Virus record (IMG/VR): IMGVR_UViG_3300011339_000251
Coordinates: 1-35,233 of that record
Length of the DNA: 35,233 nucleotides
Direction: 5' to 3' (one strand)
Source: a virus
Taxonomy: Duplodnaviria > Caudoviricetes
A program made the position numbers and the translations under genes. The notes beneath the pieces were generated by a model. It saw nothing but the letters and a program-made list of their open reading frames with translations. It had not been told where the DNA came from and searched no databases. This document shows positions 740-31,979 of the stretch, piece by piece. Within the stretch, counting starts at the first letter, position 1. Every line of letters starts with the position of its first letter.

Positions 740-2380
740 ATGAGTTTTTTACCCCTTAAAGTTACCGGTCAATGTGTCGCGGATGACGACACGCTATTTG
801 CGCACATGGATGCCGCAATAGCGCGAGGGTATCCGCAAGTCACCGAAAAGCAAGACACAAAGACTGACCCGATTTTGTTGGTGGCAAGCGCCCCAAGCGT
901 TAAAGGGCAAATAGAACTCATCAAGAAAATGCAAGCAGCCGGTGCGCCGGTTGTTGCCATTAAGGGCGCACACGATTGGTTAATTGACAACGGCGTGATC
1001 CCCGACTACGCTTTAGCAATTGACCCGCAAGAGCATCGTATTGCGTTTTACAAGCCGCACAAAGCCGTTCGGTACATGATTGCTTCGCAATGCCATCCGG
1101 CAATGTTTGATAACCTTGCGGGCTACGATGTAACCCTATGGCATCCATACGTTATGAAGGGCCAAACGCGCCCCAAATCGTCCATGTTAATAGGTGGTGG
1201 CACAACCTCCGGCCTGCGCGCTATTTCGCTGTTTTATGTGCTTGGATGGCGGCAATTTGAATTGTTTGGGTTTGATTCCTGTAACACCAATGAAGCGTTA
1301 CGGGTTAACGGCGATGGCCTAAAAGATGGCGACAAGCTAATTGAAGTTAGGATCGACCCTGATGGCGAGACTTTCCATTGCAATACGGCAATGGCGTTGC
1401 AAGCCGAGCATTTTCAAACTTATTACGACTACTTACCGGATGCGGTTTTCAATGGTCATGGGCACGGACTAATCCAAGCCATCATCCGCAAAAGGCAAGA
1501 AAACATGATGGAATTAGGCAACATTATTAACAATCAAACGCAACAAAATGATAGGGTTTCGTTTATCCATTTTGGCGATCATTGGTCGGCAAGCTGGCGT
1601 TACAGGGCAAAGATACCGTCGGGCGATTGGGCAAGCCTTAACGACTTGACCGCCGGAACACTAGTTTTTGCCAAACCCCAAGCGCATGAACTAATGGACA
1701 TGGCACGGGCTAAAGCGCGTGGCGCACGGGTAATCGTGGACTTTTGCGACGACCATTTTAATTGGACGCATTACGCCGAGGCGTTGCGGATTGCCGATGC
1801 GGTAACTTGCCCAACCCAAGAAATGGCAAAACGCATTAAAGCATTGGGCTACGAAGCAACCGTGATTCCCGACCCATTTGAATACAAAGAAATGCCGCCG
1901 CATTGCACTGGTGTCAATTTGCTTTGGTACGGTCATGCCGTCAACAAACAAAGTTTACAACGCATTTTGCCGGACATTGAGGAATATCCTTTGCGGGTTG
2001 TGTCCAACTTTGGCGGGGCAATTCCTTGGTCGCATGAAACCATGTTGAAGGAATTTGCCCGCGCTGACATCGTAATAATTCCCGCTACGGATACTTACAA
2101 AAGCCCAAATCGGGCAATTGAGGCAACTAGGCAAGGTTGTTTTGTGGTCGCGGAGCCGCATCCGGCTTTGGACGGCTTTCCTGGCATCTGGATTGGCAAC
2201 ATTAAAGAGGGTATCAAATGGACGACACAAAGGAACGTGTGGAGAAATATCTCGGCGGCGCAAAAATTCGTGATGGAAAAATATTCGCCGCAAATAGTGA
2301 TCGATGCATGGAAGACGATTACGAAACGGCCTATAACCTTGGATGCGGCAAAAAGCACTGGAACGGATGGGTTAACGTAG
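740..2380 (+). CDS. Fusion of N-terminal DUF115/MptE-like (Maf-type) domain and C-terminal GT-B (GT4-like) glycosyltransferase
   Basis: N-half: LVASAPSV...AIKGAHDWL..NGVIPD....DP and GGTTSG.RA....LG.....FGFDS. C-half: SWRYRA, DFCDDHF, ADAVTCPT, VIPD, LWYG, ADIVIIP, KSPNR..EA...G..VVA, YSP. Confidence 0.75.
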   Translation: MSFLPLKVTGQCVADDDTLFAHMDAAIARGYPQVTEKQDTKTDPILLVASAPSVKGQIELIKKMQAAGAPVVAIKGAHDWLIDNGVIPDYALAIDPQEHRIAFYKPHKAVRYMIASQCHPAMFDNLAGYDVTLWHPYVMKGQTRPKSSMLIGGGTTSGLRAISLFYVLGWRQFELFGFDSCNTNEALRVNGDGLKDGDKLIEVRIDPDGETFHCNTAMALQAEHFQTYYDYLPDAVFNGHGHGLIQAIIRKRQENMMELGNIINNQTQQNDRVSFIHFGDHWSASWRYRAKIPSGDWASLNDLTAGTLVFAKPQAHELMDMARAKARGARVIVDFCDDHFNWTHYAEALRIADAVTCPTQEMAKRIKALGYEATVIPDPFEYKEMPPHCTGVNLLWYGHAVNKQSLQRILPDIEEYPLRVVSNFGGAIPWSHETMLKEFARADIVIIPATDTYKSPNRAIEATRQGCFVVAEPHPALDGFPGIWIGNIKEGIKWTTQRNVWRNISAAQKFVMEKYSPQIVIDAWKTITKRPITLDAAKSTGTDGLT

Positions 2381-2820
2381 ACCTTTATTCGGATGTTTCG
2401 GACATTAAATGCGACTTGCGTAAGCTTGAACTTGCAAGCAATTCAGCCGATGCGGTTGCCGCCATTCATGTGTTGGAGCATTTTTATGAATGGGAAGTGC
2501 ACGCTTTGTTGACCGAATGGATGCGCGTGTTAAAGCCAGGCGGCAAGATGATTCTTGAACTTCCGTGCATGGACAAGGTGTTTGCTTACATCCACAATTG
2601 CGTAGTGCATAAACAGTCATTGCAACCGTTTATGACCACCTATGCGCTATGGGGTGATCCTAAATACAAAGATTCTGCCATGTGCCATCGGTGGGGCTGG
2701 TTTGAAACCCCGTTGCGCCAAATGCTGCAATCCGTAGGCATGGAACGGATCGAATTTCTTGACCCGCGCTATCATTTTCCGTTTAGAGATATGAGGATCG
2801 AATGCTACAAGGTGTCTTAA
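2308..2820 (+). CDS. Class I SAM-dependent methyltransferase
   Basis: Motifs NLGCG, WVNVD, CDLRKL, HVLEH, EWMRVLKPGG; start placed at MEDDYE (ORF is open from 2218). Confidence 0.88.
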   Translation: MEDDYETAYNLGCGKKHWNGWVNVDLYSDVSDIKCDLRKLELASNSADAVAAIHVLEHFYEWEVHALLTEWMRVLKPGGKMILELPCMDKVFAYIHNCVVHKQSLQPFMTTYALWGDPKYKDSAMCHRWGWFETPLRQMLQSVGMERIEFLDPRYHFPFRDMRIECYKVS

Positions 2821-3536
2821 GCAACGAGGAGCGTCATGCCCAAATGTCGCAAGCAAATGGGCAAATGCTCAAAAAACGGCCCAAATTTAACAACAAATGG
2901 GCATCAATTGTTTGTTATGGCCCAAGCCTTGCGGACACATGGAAGCTTATAAAACGCCCAATTGTCACGGTGTCAGGGGCGCATGACTACCTTGTAAGGC
3001 GCGGGATTGTGCCTGATTTCCATGTTGATTGCGACCCAAGGGAACACAAAGCACGGATGCTGCAAAACCCTCAAAGCAAGACAACTTACCTAATGGCGAC
3101 GGTTTGCCATCCAAAATATTGGGAAGTGCTAAAAGGCCACAATGTCCGGCTTTGGCATCTAATCAACGGCGATGACCTAGAAACCGTGGCTTGGGTGCTA
3201 GAAAACCATCCAGAAGGCGCAAATAGCATGGTTGGCGGAGGTAGTTCGGTTGGGCAACGGGCAATGAATGTCATGGCGGCGCTAGGCTACCGGCGATTTA
3301 ACGTCCACGGCATGGATTGTTCATTTACAACCGACCGGCACGCTGGGCCACATTTTGGTAAAGAACAAGCTAAAATCTTTGTGCAAGCTGGAAACAGGGT
3401 GTTTCAGACCACAAGACAAATGCTACAAGCGGCGATTGAGATGGAGCAATTCATCACAACTCAGGATGCGGAGGTCGCATTTTTCGGTGATGGTTTAATG
3501 CAAGAAACCGCACTTCAACTAAAGGAAATGGCATGA
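2802..3536 (+). CDS. Second DUF115/MptE-like (Maf-type) protein
   Basis: IVCYGPSL...TVSGAHDYL..RGIVPD....DP and GGSSVG.RA....LGY....HGMDCS; evident paralog of the N-half of 740..2380. Confidence 0.78.
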   Translation: MLQGVLSNEERHAQMSQANGQMLKKRPKFNNKWASIVCYGPSLADTWKLIKRPIVTVSGAHDYLVRRGIVPDFHVDCDPREHKARMLQNPQSKTTYLMATVCHPKYWEVLKGHNVRLWHLINGDDLETVAWVLENHPEGANSMVGGGSSVGQRAMNVMAALGYRRFNVHGMDCSFTTDRHAGPHFGKEQAKIFVQAGNRVFQTTRQMLQAAIEMEQFITTQDAEVAFFGDGLMQETALQLKEMA

Positions 3537-25695: not shown

Positions 25696-28013
25696 TGGCC
25701 TACCAAGAAATGGGTGCTTACGAGGGCGATGACCCTGGCCCGTATTGGCACGACCAAATCGAATCCGCGCAAAAGGTTTTTGACAAATGGGAAAAGCGCG
25801 GGCATAAAATTATCAAGCGGTATCGGGATGAGCGCGATGCGGTAGAAATGCCCCGCGTTCGATACAACATTCTTTGGTCAAACATCCAAGTGTTGTTTCC
25901 CGCGCTATACGGACGGCAAGCAAAGCCCGAAGTCTCCCGCCGCTACATGGATCAAGACCCCGTGGGCCGTCTGGCATCAACAATGCTGGAACGGGTCATG
26001 GAATACGAAACCATGCAATTTGGCGACTTTGACAACGCCATGCGCGGCGCGGTTGAAGATCGTTTGTTGCCTGGTCGCGGCACGGCATGGATTCGTTACG
26101 AGCCGGTGATTGTTAACGAACAACCCGAAGTAAGTGAAGCCGCCGGTCAAATGGAGGAGCCAGGCGAGGCGCAGATTTATGACACGGTAGAGGAGCCAAC
26201 CGAGCGCATTGATGCGGCGCACAGCCCCATTGATTACGTTTATTGGACGGACTTCTTGCATTCGCCAGCCCGCACATGGGATGAAGTATGGTGGGTTGCC
26301 CGCGCCGTTTACATGACCAAAGACGAAGGCATAGAGCGTTTTGGCGATGTGTTTAAGAACGTTGGTCTAGACAGCAGCAACACGGACATGGATGCCAAAA
26401 ATCCAATGACCGCTAAAAACACCTATGACAAAAAAGCCAAGGTGTTTGAGATTTGGAACAAGCGCACCGGCAAGGTCTGCTGGGTGGCAAAGGGTTATCC
26501 ACAAGCGTTAGATGAGCGTGACGATCCGCTGGAATTGGAAGAATTTTTCCCATGCCCGCGCCCGTTGATGTCAACCACCACCACCGGCACAATGATCCCC
26601 GTGCCCGATTATTGTGAGTACGAAGACCAAGCGCAGGAACTAGACAACCTAACGCAGCGCATTTTCTTGCTTACCAAAGCCTGTAAAGCAGTGGGCGTGT
26701 TCAATGCCGAATTCAAGGAATTAGGCCGTTTGTTTACCGAAGGCGTAGACAACAAGCTTTTTCCCGTTACCGCATGGGCGGCAATGTCGGAAAAAGGCGG
26801 GCTAAAAGGTGCAATCGACATGATGGACACTTCGACCATCATTGTGACCTTGCGGGAACTGTATTCAGCACGGGAGCAAGTCAAGCAGGCCATTTACGAG
26901 ATTATGGGCATCTCGGACATCTTGCGTGGTGCATCAAAAGCGCAAGAAACCCTTGGCGCACAACAGCTAAAGGCAAACTTTGGCAGCTTACGGATGCGAA
27001 GCAGCCAAGGCGATGTGGCGCGGTTTGCTTCCGACATCTTTAAACTAAAAGCGCAAGTTATTTGCAAGTTTTACCCGCCAGAGTTGATTGTGCAGATGTC
27101 AGGTGTAATGGACACCGAAGATGGTAAAGACCCGCAATTGCTGCAAGCCGCCGTGCAAATGTTGTCCAACAGCACAATCCGCGACTTCCATATTGCGGTT
27201 GAAGCCGATAGCCTAGCGCAAATTGACGAACAAGCGGAAAAACAAGGCGCACAAGAAGCCATCCAAGCCATTGGAATGTTTTTGCGTGAGGCAATCCCAA
27301 TGATTAGCCAAGCGCCCGAAACCTTGCCAATGGCATCCGAGATGCTGCTGTTCTTGGTTCGCCGCTTCCGTGCTGGTCGCGGACTAGAAAGCGCCGTAGA
27401 ACGCGCTATGAAAGCGTTGGAGCAAAAAGCGGCAATGGCACAACAACAACCGCCTGGCCCCAATCCCGAGCAATTGAAGATTGAAGCGCAAAACCAAACC
27501 GAGCAAATGAAAATGCAAGCCACGGCGCAAGCGGAACAAGCACGGATGCAAGCCGAAACACAAAGGGCGCAAATGCAAGCCCAATTAGACATTCAAAAAC
27601 ACCAAGCGCAATTGCAAGCGGATATGCAACTTGCCCAAATGAAGGCAGATTTTGAAACCGCCATGCAAAACAACGAAATGCAAATAAAAGCCCGAGAAAT
27701 GGCGGGAAGGGAAGAATACGAACGATGGAAAGCCGAGTTGGATGCAGCAACCAAGATCATGGTGGCTCGCATTGGTAGCAATCCTGGCGTAGATTTACCA
27801 GTGGTTGAGGCAGCGGCTGCACAAATAACCAATGAACTAGGCGGCACAATTATTCAAGCAATGGACAAAATAACCGCATTGCATGACAACATGGCAAATT
27901 TGCACGGGGAATCTATGCAAAACATTGGCGCGGCAATGCAAAAGTTAAGCGCACCTAAACGTGTAATTCGTGGCCCTGACGGAATGGTGATAGGTGTGGA
28001 GGCCGTCCAATGA
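25695..28013 (+). CDS. Portal protein with long C-terminal coiled coil
   Basis: 772 aa after terL; FFPCP, I.GISDI.RG...ET..AQ..K motif; Gln-rich C-terminal barrel-like segment. Confidence 0.85.
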   Translation: MAYQEMGAYEGDDPGPYWHDQIESAQKVFDKWEKRGHKIIKRYRDERDAVEMPRVRYNILWSNIQVLFPALYGRQAKPEVSRRYMDQDPVGRLASTMLERVMEYETMQFGDFDNAMRGAVEDRLLPGRGTAWIRYEPVIVNEQPEVSEAAGQMEEPGEAQIYDTVEEPTERIDAAHSPIDYVYWTDFLHSPARTWDEVWWVARAVYMTKDEGIERFGDVFKNVGLDSSNTDMDAKNPMTAKNTYDKKAKVFEIWNKRTGKVCWVAKGYPQALDERDDPLELEEFFPCPRPLMSTTTTGTMIPVPDYCEYEDQAQELDNLTQRIFLLTKACKAVGVFNAEFKELGRLFTEGVDNKLFPVTAWAAMSEKGGLKGAIDMMDTSTIIVTLRELYSAREQVKQAIYEIMGISDILRGASKAQETLGAQQLKANFGSLRMRSSQGDVARFASDIFKLKAQVICKFYPPELIVQMSGVMDTEDGKDPQLLQAAVQMLSNSTIRDFHIAVEADSLAQIDEQAEKQGAQEAIQAIGMFLREAIPMISQAPETLPMASEMLLFLVRRFRAGRGLESAVERAMKALEQKAAMAQQQPPGPNPEQLKIEAQNQTEQMKMQATAQAEQARMQAETQRAQMQAQLDIQKHQAQLQADMQLAQMKADFETAMQNNEMQIKAREMAGREEYERWKAELDAATKIMVARIGSNPGVDLPVVEAAAAQITNELGGTIIQAMDKITALHDNMANLHGESMQNIGAAMQKLSAPKRVIRGPDGMVIGVEAVQ

Positions 28014-28870
28014 GCCTTGTTTTAGCGGATCGCGTTAGACAAACATCCACAACAACGGGGTCAGGCACATTTACGTTAGATGGTTCGGTCGCGGGTTTTC
28101 AATCCTTTAGCGCAATTGGCGATGGCAACACAACTTATTACACCATTTCGTTAGATTCCCAATGGGAAGTGGGCATTGGGACGTATTCGGCGGGTACATT
28201 GTCCCGTGACACGGTAATTTCTTCTAGTACGGGAAGCAAAATTGCATTTGCCGCTGGTGCAAAAGATGTTTTTGTGTCTTACCCCGCAGAAAAATCGGTA
28301 AATCAAGACGCAAATAATCGTGTTTTGATACCTTACACATCGGGCGTAACCAATGTAGGTTCTTTAAATGTAGGTGATGCAACACCACACACCGATTCCG
28401 GCGTTATTGCTGGGTTTACCGCAAGTGAACCGCTTTATTTGTACACTAGCTTACAAAACACAAGCGCAGCTAATACAAGCTATGCATCGTATGCGGTTAA
28501 CGATGGTGGTCATACGGCTTATGGTGAATTAGGAATAAATAACGCAAATTACAGCTATTCGGCGGCGGGCTATCCTAACAATGGATTTAGCGCCCCATTA
28601 GCATCTTTTGTTGAATGCTACGGTGGCCCGTTAGTATTGGGAAGTTGGGATAACCAAAAAATTAGTTTTATTATTAATGGCTCGGTTAGTACAACGGATG
28701 TAATGACATTAAACACTAATGGTTCGGTTGCATTTAATGGGCAAGTCGGAACTGCTGGACAAGTTTTACAAAGCAATGCAACAAGCGCACCAACTTGGGT
28801 AACCCCTAGCGGTGGTAGTGGAATTACAACCGGTAAAAGTATCGCAATGAGCATGATATTTGGGTATTAG
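28010..28870 (+). CDS. Virion structural / fibre-like protein
   Basis: LVLADRV..TSTTTG.GT.TL N-terminus, WEVGIGT, GTAGQVLQS, TGKSIAMSMIFG C-terminus. Confidence 0.65.
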   Translation: MSLVLADRVRQTSTTTGSGTFTLDGSVAGFQSFSAIGDGNTTYYTISLDSQWEVGIGTYSAGTLSRDTVISSSTGSKIAFAAGAKDVFVSYPAEKSVNQDANNRVLIPYTSGVTNVGSLNVGDATPHTDSGVIAGFTASEPLYLYTSLQNTSAANTSYASYAVNDGGHTAYGELGINNANYSYSAAGYPNNGFSAPLASFVECYGGPLVLGSWDNQKISFIINGSVSTTDVMTLNTNGSVAFNGQVGTAGQVLQSNATSAPTWVTPSGGSGITTGKSIAMSMIFGY

Positions 28871-29409
28871 TATCCAAATGTTACAATATGGTTTTTGGAG
28901 TATAAAACCATGTGGACAGATGAGCAAAGAAAAGCAGCAAGTGAAAGAGCAAAAGCAAGATGGGCAGACCCAAACTATAAAGCTAGTCAAAAAAAGGCGC
29001 TTCTTAGGTCTCCAAAATGCCCAAAATGCGGTGAATCAAAAATTGAAAATTTTTATGTAGATGAAAATGGGTTAAGGACAAACAAAAATTGTAGGGAATG
29101 CCACAAAAAAGATTGCAAGGAGCGTTGGCACAAAAGAACATGGCTTGATCGATGGGCATCCAGAAACTACAAATATGGCGTAACAAAAGAATTTTTAATT
29201 GGCATTTATGAAAAACATCAAGGAAAATGTGCAATCTGTAATGAAGTACCGTCTTCTACAAGAGGATTGCATATTGACCATTGCCACAAAACGGGCGCAA
29301 TTCGTGGCTTGTTATGCCACGGTTGCAATACGGGGATTGGTGCTTTAAAAGAAAGCCCTGAAATTATGTTAAAAGCTATTGAGTATTTAAAGTGATCTTC
29401 GGATACTAA
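28867..29409 (+). mobile_element. Free-standing homing endonuclease insertion
   Basis: AT-rich endonuclease cassette bounded by inverted repeats and by two synonymous copies of the IFGY-stop codons. Confidence 0.7.
28910..29395 (+). CDS. Endonuclease VII-family (His-Me finger) homing endonuclease
   Basis: KYG.T, Q.KCAIC, LHIDHCH.TG.IRGLLC..CN.GIG, A.EYL; N-terminal basic segment and CPKC..CREC finger; ATG 28910 with GGAG RBS. Confidence 0.9.
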   Translation: MWTDEQRKAASERAKARWADPNYKASQKKALLRSPKCPKCGESKIENFYVDENGLRTNKNCRECHKKDCKERWHKRTWLDRWASRNYKYGVTKEFLIGIYEKHQGKCAICNEVPSSTRGLHIDHCHKTGAIRGLLCHGCNTGIGALKESPEIMLKAIEYLK

Positions 29410-29418
29410 GGAACAAGC

Positions 29419-29790
29419 ATGGCAAACCCTAATATTGTTAACGTAACATCAATTTACGGCAACACAAGCTATTTGATTCCAGGCACTACAGCGGCTACGA
29501 CTTGGACTGCACTTACTCCTGCCTCTGGCACGGTCAACAAGATTGACAACATTGTTGCGTCCAATGTGACTGCGGCTGTAGCAACAGTAACCGTTGCAAT
29601 TAACAGTGCAGCGGCTGGTGCTGGAACAAACTACCGCTTAATTTATCAAGTGCCTGTCCCAGTAAACGCTTCTATCGTCATAGTGGACAAAAGCACGGCG
29701 TTTTATTTAGGTGAAGCGCAGTCTATTGTGGTGACTGTGGGAACTGCAAGCGCGATTGAGTTAACGTCATCGTTTGAAGCAATTACTTAA
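29419..29790 (+). CDS. Virion structural protein
   Basis: MANPNIVNV.SI.G N-terminus, beta-rich, RBS AAGGA. Confidence 0.65.
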   Translation: MANPNIVNVTSIYGNTSYLIPGTTAATTWTALTPASGTVNKIDNIVASNVTAAVATVTVAINSAAAGAGTNYRLIYQVPVPVNASIVIVDKSTAFYLGEAQSIVVTVGTASAIELTSSFEAIT

Positions 29791-30953
29791 TGTCCACGCA
29801 ATACAAGGGGTCTGTTCTTTCATCGACAGAACAGCCTACATCAACTTCTAGCGCCAGTGGAATCTGGACTACTAGTGATGTAATGCAGGCGCAAAAAGCG
29901 GCTACATGGGTTACTTTAAGTTTTCCAATTGAATTTTTATTGATTGCTGGTGGTGGTTCTGGAGGCTATCAATATAGCGGCGGCGGCGGTGCTGGTGGTG
30001 TAGTTTTATCCACATCGTTAACTATCGCCCCTGCTACAAACTACACGGTAACAATCGGGGCCGGTGGAACATCAGCATCATCTAATACAACTGCTGCAAA
30101 TGGAAACGGCAACAATTCTGTATTCTCAGCATCAGTCTCTAGCCCCGCAATAGCTGGCGGTGGCGGTGGTATTGATCTTAGTAAAGCTGGCGCAAATGGC
30201 GGCTCTGGAGGCGGCGCTGCTTATTTAAACGGATTTGCTGGTGGAACTGGAACAGCAGGCCAAGGTAGGAATGGTGGCGCTGGAGATTCAAATGTCAATT
30301 TTGGCGGTGGTGGTGGTGGATATGGTGGTGTTGGTGCGGGTGGCACAAACTCTACTGGTATTGGCGGCGTAGGAATATTGAGCACTATCACCACAAATTT
30401 TGCTGGGACTGCAAACACAAGCACCAGCACAAGCATAAATATCACCGCCGTTTCTGCTGGTGTTATAGGTATTGGTACGCAAATAACGGGATCAGGCGTT
30501 CCCGCAGGCACTGTAGTTACCGCTTTGGGAACAGGTACAGGCGGCACTGGTACTTACACCATGAACAAGGCTACCACTACTACGTTAACTGGAACCGCAA
30601 TTACAAGCACTGGCGTTTACTACGCTGGCGGTGGTGGTGGTTGGACTCGAAACACAGGAACAACCGTTGGCGGTTTAGGCGGCGGTGGTGGTGGAGTAAC
30701 CGGCACTAACACAAGCGCAGGCGGCGTTAACCAAGGTGGTGGCGGTGGTGGCGGTGGAGCACTTGCAGTAGGCGGCACTGGTGGCTCTGGGATATTAGTT
30801 ATTGCCTACCCCAACACATACGCTAATCTTTCTTCTGTAGCCGCAGGGCTGACTTGTAACGGCAGCGCAGGCAACACTACGCCAAACACAACATACCGCA
30901 CGGGTTACAAAGTGTACAGATTCACTGCCGGTACTGGCGCTATTTCTTGGTAA
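29790..30953 (+). CDS. Glycine-rich fibre/adhesin-like protein 1
   Basis: LIAGGG.GG, GGGGAGG, Y.VTIGAGG, YAGGGGG, GGSGI.VI.Y, Y.FT..G.I motifs. Confidence 0.75.
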   Translation: MSTQYKGSVLSSTEQPTSTSSASGIWTTSDVMQAQKAATWVTLSFPIEFLLIAGGGSGGYQYSGGGGAGGVVLSTSLTIAPATNYTVTIGAGGTSASSNTTAANGNGNNSVFSASVSSPAIAGGGGGIDLSKAGANGGSGGGAAYLNGFAGGTGTAGQGRNGGAGDSNVNFGGGGGGYGGVGAGGTNSTGIGGVGILSTITTNFAGTANTSTSTSINITAVSAGVIGIGTQITGSGVPAGTVVTALGTGTGGTGTYTMNKATTTTLTGTAITSTGVYYAGGGGGWTRNTGTTVGGLGGGGGGVTGTNTSAGGVNQGGGGGGGGALAVGGTGGSGILVIAYPNTYANLSSVAAGLTCNGSAGNTTPNTTYRTGYKVYRFTAGTGAISW

Positions 30954-30959
30954 ACCACA

Positions 30960-31979
30960 ATGGCTACTAGATACAAAGGCTCTATCCTGTCGTCCACGGC
31001 GCAAGTGCCTAGTATTATTAGCGCAAAAGGAATTTGGAAAACTTCTAATGTTTTACAAGCGCTGAAAGCTGGAATATGGCCTACGTTATATAACCCTATA
31101 GACATAATTTATTTAGTGGTAGCTGGTGGTGGAGCAGGCGGTTCTTATTATTACGGCGGCGGCGGCGGTGCTGGTGGCCTTAAAACGAATAATGGCGGTG
31201 CAGCGTATTCAATCCCCCAAGGTTCAGGAGCATACGCAGTGGTTGTCGGGGCTGGTGGTACAGGTAGCATTACTACACCAACTAGCGGCAGCACATCCTC
31301 ACTTATTGGCACAGGTCTATCAATATCCTCAACAGGTGGTGGTAGGGGTGGGGCAGCTATTTCTGCTAACCCTGGCCCGTTAACAGGCGGCTCTGGAGGT
31401 GGTAGCGGATCACAAAGCGGCGTTAATGGATCAGCGGGAACTAGCGGTCAAGGTTTTGCCGGTGGAAATGGCGGCTCTACTGCGGGATATGGTGGTGGCG
31501 GTGGCGGTTCTAGTGCTGTGGGTACTACTGGTCAAGGCACAACATCTCCTACTGGCACAGGCGGCACTGGTACTAACTTAGCCAGTCTAATAAGCACTAC
31601 ACTCGCAACAAGCTCTAGCGTGGGTTTTGTTTCAAGCGCACAAGTTCTTTTTGCTGGCGGCGGCGGTGGTGGCAGGGACGGCAATTTAGGTGGCGGCGGG
31701 GATGTCGCGCCGGGTTCTGCTGGCGGCGGTAGTGGAGCCACCTACACCTTGGGCGTAAACGCTACTGCTGGGGCGGCGTACACGGGTTCGGGCGGAGGAG
31801 GTGCTTGCCATACCGGAATCAGCACAGCCAACGCAACTAGTGGCAACGGTGGCAAAGGCGTAGTCATTATTAAATACGCTGGGACGGCAGCCCGCGCCAC
31901 TGGCGGCGACGTAATAGATGTTAGCGGCGGATACGTCACCCATATATTTAAGAACAATGGATCGTTTACACCAATATAA
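30960..31979 (+). CDS. Glycine-rich fibre/adhesin-like protein 2
   Basis: Same Gly-rich architecture and shared N-terminus with the preceding gene. Confidence 0.75.
   Translation: MATRYKGSILSSTAQVPSIISAKGIWKTSNVLQALKAGIWPTLYNPIDIIYLVVAGGGAGGSYYYGGGGGAGGLKTNNGGAAYSIPQGSGAYAVVVGAGGTGSITTPTSGSTSSLIGTGLSISSTGGGRGGAAISANPGPLTGGSGGGSGSQSGVNGSAGTSGQGFAGGNGGSTAGYGGGGGGSSAVGTTGQGTTSPTGTGGTGTNLASLISTTLATSSSVGFVSSAQVLFAGGGGGGRDGNLGGGGDVAPGSAGGGSGATYTLGVNATAGAAYTGSGGGGACHTGISTANATSGNGGKGVVIIKYAGTAARATGGDVIDVSGGYVTHIFKNNGSFTPI

Follow-up and report, generated by a model that had tools for sequence, protein, structure and literature searches.

The placement of a nuclease gene between two versions of the end of its host gene is itself already known, from yeast WHO elements and from fungal mitochondrial gene hybrids. 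According to the available text of Coughlan et al. 2020 (PMC7282813), the WHO homing elements at yeast FBA1 carry a nuclease gene 3' of an intact host gene that has received a donor-allele 3' end, with the old end located behind the nuclease and with no splicing involved; the fragments, of about 400 bp, are proposed to be a required homology arm, and cleavage was demonstrated. Endonuclease-ORF gene hybrids of fungal mitochondria (Allomyces atp6; Glomus atp6, atp9, cox2 and nad3; Ophiostoma rps3) are described, in the available portions of PMC3630166 and PMC4019555, as an in-frame foreign C-terminus followed by a LAGLIDADG or GIY-YIG nuclease and then by a stranded native C-terminus that is closer to relatives' alleles. 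In phages, F-CphI is a free-standing DHHRN enzyme with a C-terminal Endo VII motif and co-conversion of its flanks, being protected by an intron (PMC6083498, available sections); in the T4 seg and mob elements, which home without an intron, a hairpin covers the RBS and the promoter is internal, and the distance between a free-standing T4 enzyme's gene and its cut runs to hundreds or thousands of bp (PMC2988022, available sections). Phage HEG-islands contain essential-gene remnants beside homing nucleases, proposed to act as recombination substrates (Barth et al. 2023, PMC10055350); these fragments are small annotated genes, the islands exceed 10 kb, and the available part of that paper does not describe codon-level swapped ends, nor does the available part of a Skunavirus paper contain a passage on duplication. 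The HomeR (home-and-rescue) drive, a synthetic Cas9-based system in flies, cleaves its target gene at the 3' coding end and provides a deliberately re-coded replacement (PMC7968924, available part).

The DNA analyzed in the current work, referred to as the window, is the whole 35,233-nt linear virus record (57% complete), in which the nuclease site is located 3' of the terminase and portal genes and 5' of the major head gene. The locus comprises the following features:

28010 to 28870, + strand: host gene of 286 aa, with a variable body and the conserved end GK[SA]IAMAMIFG[FY], between the portal and major head genes
28850 to 28870, + strand: element-borne replacement end Ser-Met-Ile-Phe-Gly-Tyr-TAG, beginning on its left at the Ser codon where the nearest empty alleles have Ala; identical in L081/L173
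28871 to 28909, + strand: spacer with a candidate extended -10 promoter (TG-n-TACAAT, 28879-28887) and an RBS, GGAG (28897-28900), of putative function
28910 to 29395, + strand: Endo VII-type (DHHRN) endonuclease, 161 aa from ATG 28910, or 166 aa from TTG 28895 (PF02945, E 5e-24; phrog_2633; alignment)
29392 to 29409, + strand: second copy of the host gene end, V/M-I-F-G-Y-stop, of empty type and stranded, which overlaps the stop of the nuclease
29410 to 29790, + strand: RBS and conserved downstream gene of 123 aa, starting MANPNIVNV, the right-hand homology for repair in the model proposed below

Loci at which the end of the upstream gene lies directly in front of the downstream gene are named empty, and those carrying the nuclease occupied; L081 and L173 denote the same contig, as do L165 and L022. 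With further scans, 214 distinct ends were collected (153 empty, 53 occupied, 4 deletion remnants, 2 with another nuclease and 2 unclassified), the empty set being partly selected on the pattern A-M-[AS]-M-I-F-G.

As in WHO elements and mitochondrial hybrids, a donor-type 3' end completes the host gene ahead of the nuclease; a stranded and empty-like native 3' end was found in the window and L081 only. The window fragment measures 18 nt, unlike the WHO fragments, and such a fragment occurs in 2 of 52 occupied alleles; the next gene would serve as right-hand homology, and the enzyme is of the DHHRN type. The duplicated ends amount to 5-7 codons, in phages, as opposed to the longer ends in organelles. 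The nuclease resembles F-CphI in its free-standing gene, C-terminal motif and co-converted flanks, but not in protection by an intron; the break would fall within about 30 nt of the insertion, unlike those of the T4 enzymes, and the codon differences are largely allelic, unlike those of HomeR.

An earlier sequence-only reading of this DNA had assigned the gene to the Endo VII type, which is supported by the PF02945 match and by an intact DHHRN motif. Following the definition CX2-4C, D-H-x-H, R, CX2C, N (PMC6083498, available sections), alignment revealed the complete motif, zinc cysteines included (C107/C110, D123, H124, H126, R132, C136/C139, N140), and the Pfam match, spanning residues 90-166 of 166, places the catalytic domain at the C-terminus, the N-terminal region containing conserved CxxC pairs. 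D-H-H-R-N is retained in 51 of 52 occupied alleles; the L173 nuclease carries H124Y, a Tyr in place of the first His, and may be dead. No Pfam or PHROG family was found for the host gene, which is likely structural given its position between the portal and major head genes, and no family match was obtained for the downstream gene. The upstream genes have unrelated bodies, yet they share an end peptide of approximately 12 residues and precede the same MANPNIVNV gene, for which this peptide is possibly a docking motif. Elsewhere in the window, two MptE-like genes and a methyltransferase (740-3536) lie amid virion-region genes, possibly as a particle or DNA modification module, and a tandem pair of paralogous glycine-rich genes (29790-31979; PF21722, phrog_2295) have similar N-termini. 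The habitat labels of the sequencing runs containing the site, where present, are riverine or freshwater. No close relative was found among cultured phages (best about 36-38% identity), and bacterial and archaeal genomes yielded distant relatives only (36 loci, at most 49% over partial length) and no close prophage relative; a literature search, mostly of papers outside subscription and of main texts, returned no paper on this phage family or site.

The upstream copy of the gene end, ATG ATA TTT GGG TAT TAG (28853-28870), closes the 286-aa gene, and the downstream copy, GTG ATC TTC GGA TAC TAA (29392-29409), is followed by GGA and by the next ATG at 29419. The duplication, its coordinates, the third-position differences (base 3 differs in 5/5 codons) and the overlap of the nuclease stop TGA (29393-29395) with the downstream copy, all claimed previously, are borne out by the sequence. 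Within the six frames of the window, 'IFGY-stop' occurs only twice, and the duplication is absent from the 20 largest direct families returned by a DNA repeat finder. It is probably not an assembly artefact, because contigs from an independent study bridge both junctions: in run X13 (a separate study, 2024), one contig spans 28820-29124 with 2 differences, thereby bridging the left junction, and a second spans 29179-29561 with 11 differences, bridging the right junction. In run X14 the left junction is likewise bridged by a contig over 28739-29353 with 1 difference. No joint skipping the nuclease is listed in the four sequencing runs compared with the window; one X13 contig, with 54 further letters, fits the window only to 28849.

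The proposed polarity, with the upstream end being element-borne and the downstream end of recipient type, also stands, since 30 nt are common to unrelated host genes and since empty alleles match the downstream copy. Between the window and L081 the host gene bodies are about 41-50% alike, the last 30 nt are identical (30/30), and the element is about 91% alike, the nucleases differing by 27 synonymous and 11 non-synonymous codons in 161. All 11 viral contigs matching the 39 nt that precede the Ser codon of the window are empty and have Ala, and L471 is 100% identical to the window over the 200 nt upstream of this 39-nt stretch. The nearest empty alleles read GCG ATG ATC TTT GGA TAT TAA, and the window diverges from them at the Ala-to-Ser codon, seven codons before the end; this non-synonymous change (GCG to AGC, 28850-28852), which adjoins the upstream copy, had been overlooked. 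Of 6 variable positions, the 133 empty IFG[FY] ends share 4.1 with the downstream copy and 1.9 with the upstream one, the corresponding values for 38 occupied ends being 2.3 and 3.5. The stop TAG occurs in 29/38 occupied versus 2/150 empty ends and the Gly codon GGG in 21/38 versus 13/150, these counts being inflated by kinship. As had been expected, the downstream copy is of the empty type: a single mismatch over its 20 nt separates it from 16 of the 153 empty ends, and no empty end is identical to it. The stranded piece and RBS are from another lineage, given that they are unlike the RBS region of the nearest empty alleles (TAA TT ATG).

The upstream copy had been considered fully recoded. 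The two copies do differ in 5/5 codons, but the upstream copy keeps the Phe and Tyr codons of the nearest empty alleles, relative to which the element-specific changes are AGC, ATA, GGG and TAG; judged against these alleles, ordinary allelic variation accounts for two of the five supposedly recoded codons. A difference in all five codons is observed in 2/406 pairs of empty IFGY alleles and in 70/5762 same-peptide IFG[FY] pairs, and is uncommon yet inside allele variation. In L081/L173, the sole other contig with a stranded copy, 4/5 codons differ.

As the earlier reading held, the nuclease is optional at a fixed site. The 80 best relatives of the downstream gene comprise 76 empty loci, 2 occupied ones and 2 partial matches that are unreadable, and all 19 full-length nuclease relatives of the first scan (53-93% identity) are located at this site. 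What is established is a fixed site, optional presence, an intact catalytic motif, and terminal codons which travel with the nuclease between unrelated host genes; in being optional, in keeping one position between conserved neighbours and in having co-converted flanks, the gene resembles those of free-standing homing endonucleases. Based on these sequence comparisons, the Endo VII-type gene is probably a free-standing homing endonuclease that would cut the conserved host end and bring its own last codons. A passenger nuclease, or one with a phage function (resolvase-like or competitor-cutting), the duplicate being the scar of an illegitimate crossover between occupied and empty genomes, is highly improbable: although the DHHRN motif is also found in resolvases and restriction enzymes (PMC6083498, available sections), the best solved relatives of the nuclease are Hpy99I and T4 Endo VII, and the stranded copy is rare, there are homing signatures in the optional presence (4 occupied among the 120 Ala-type loci listed, of about 550), in the use of one site across 45-93% divergent proteins, and in the short conversion tracts centred on the site, the deletion remnants and the second nuclease family found there, and the catalytic domain is C-terminal as in F-CphI, rather than N-terminal as in T4 Endo VII. 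At loci with an AGY spelling of Ser, 7/18 are occupied.

The deletion remnants are 4 distinct alleles that keep both element ends and have lost the nuclease; the nuclease is thus lost regardless, and the suggestion that recoding minimises homology for excision finds no support. In L169, L177, L405, L423 and L446 the start of the left spacer and the last codons of the nuclease are kept and the rest of the gene is gone. L165, which among empty alleles is closest to L173, combines the Ser codon with TAG but carries no nuclease, and may be an allele cured from an L173-like ancestor. An unrelated HNH_3 and AP2 endonuclease was observed at the same site, directly 3' of the MIFGF stop, in L347 (132-647, - strand) and L398 (667-1182, + strand).

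The stranded copy is the exception. In 49/52 occupied alleles the nuclease Tyr-Leu runs straight into the RBS of the next gene without a stranded peptide; 2/52 have the stranded copy, and a scan of all viral contigs for a nuclease end followed by a stranded copy retrieved 1 contig, so that the fragment is not a regular part, or homology arm, of the element. A tree built from 51 nucleases, with 2 short rows left out, groups the window with L173 inside three successive well-supported sets (100/98, 99/95, 100/98) that are otherwise without it. On this sequence comparison, the stranded copy is a derived and rare side product, not the family rule. Insertion 5-6 codons before the stop consequently fails as the mechanism of the element, given the 49 direct RBS joins, the nested position of the stranded cases, and the finding that nothing beyond the last sense codon and the stop is invariably common to sister nucleases.

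These observations bear on a WHO-like mechanism built on the sequence-only reading, in which the enzyme cuts just before the second Met codon, a recoded end of 5-7 codons is always supplied, and the stranded end, lost from most lineages afterwards, belongs to the element as its right-hand homology arm. In its favour, the stranded copy begins at the second Met, the left tract begins one codon earlier, and other duplications in the family begin there too: at the left junction of L202, L204, L206, L210, L213 and L217 a tandem second empty-type (I)FG[FL]-stop lies between the host stop and the nuclease start, and in L282 (1489-1941) the nuclease ORF starts in frame with MIFGF, a second copy of the host end, one base past the real stop. 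Moreover, 13 nt of the stranded copy are common to the window and L173, which then diverge, the L173 RBS matching its own host lineage, a pattern expected of a crossover inside the stranded copy; in yeast WHO elements the fragment ends marked the cut (PMC7282813, available text). This mechanism is nonetheless unlikely, considering the rarity and nested position of the stranded copy and that sister nucleases swap ATC TTC GGA for ATT TTT GGG yet keep the last codon and stop constant.

Ten pairs of sister nucleases (at least 80% alike) in different host genes, which are non-independent, always share the last sense codon and stop, and share the Ile, Phe and Gly codons at background rates. L203 and the empty L433 have bodies 94% and downstream genes 98% alike and differ in the five terminal codons and the insert, which joins at the RBS; as the flanks are alike and only terminal codons changed, the break would lie within a short stretch. 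Together with the direct RBS joins and the sister pairs, this comparison points to a usual break very close to the end of the gene. The M-A-M peptide is present in 11/37 occupied versus 42/61 empty alleles not selected on the motif (Fisher p 3e-4, rows non-independent; test limited to loci of downstream-gene relatives), and the Ser found at its site is spelled in four ways (AGC, AGT, TCA, TCG). Recoding is not required family-wide, since 14/51 occupied alleles keep M-A-M and since L170 differs from the empty L175 at the gene end solely in the last base of the stop. The right junction of the window has an intact enzyme next to 18 nt of the native end, which the RBS and the following gene adjoin; hence, if the enzyme is active here, this sequence alone cannot be the full target. 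A site spanning both halves would fit all observations. The evidence on the cut itself conflicts, co-inheritance pointing to the stop and all duplicated fragments beginning near the second Met: our judgement is evenly balanced for a cut at the last codon, stop or RBS, a cut at the second Met is conceivable if somewhat doubtful, and a cut elsewhere is rather unlikely. The cleavage target is narrowed to a candidate of about 30 bp.

Under the preferred reading of a free-standing homing endonuclease, the nuclease would act on phages without the element, cutting the upstream gene at its conserved terminus, and break repair would copy the element in. The predicted target is roughly GCN ATG GCG ATG ATH TTY GGA TWY TAA GGAG, both halves of which would be needed; an occupied genome would escape because the insert removes the stop/RBS half and often alters the Met-Ala-Met half (here Ala to Ser). 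The right-hand join would normally be made at the RBS of the next gene, this gene providing the right-hand homology. In the ancestor of the window and L081, the join would instead have exploited a short microhomology at the codon for the second Met (TGA/TGAT, 3-4 nt), stranding 18 nt of the recipient's end, which would be tolerated because it is without the upstream half of the target. The codon differences would then be those between donor and recipient alleles, the Ser codon and the stop having probably been under selection.

The spacer may carry regulatory signals. A CCAAA-bearing spacer is common to 23/53 occupied alleles, and TGnTAnnnT occurs in 22/23 of these spacers versus 0/30 others. 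The TG-n-TA-n-n-n-T of the spacer matches the sigma-70 extended -10 consensus; a standard promoter scan did not list this site. Predicted hairpins at 28873-28899 and 28888-28911 would mask the RBS or start codon. The hairpin in which CCAAA would pair with the TTTGG preceding the RBS reaches 95% pairing across 21 selected sequences; its covariation is modest (3 pairs with two-sided change; 5/500 shuffles equally high). The alternative hairpin over the start codon is 93% paired with no excess covariation. The candidate promoter and putative hairpins resemble the hairpin and internal promoter of T4 nucleases. Two possible reasons for recoding were discarded: a 13-bp hairpin between gene end and spacer (z -4.4 in the window), because it is not general in relatives, and, on inspection, a -35 hexamer favoured by selection within the recoded codons.

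Overall, the earlier reading was right on polarity and wrong on generality and full recoding; as a caution, a single duplicated 'recoded' end can overstate design, most such elements joining at the stop/RBS with no stranded copy. Tentatively, the 30-bp gene-end/RBS motif of hundreds of freshwater phages might be a homing battleground, in which a split-site DHHRN family drives Met-Ala-Met to Met-Ser-Met and other changes in a conserved virion peptide, competes with HNH-AP2 nucleases, and repeatedly strands or stacks gene ends like the yeast WHO clusters, amounting to a natural home-and-rescue drive with a readable target. A DHHRN family with about 50 natural variants thereby gains a candidate target of ~30 bp together with putatively sensitive and resistant natural alleles, which makes its specificity directly testable.
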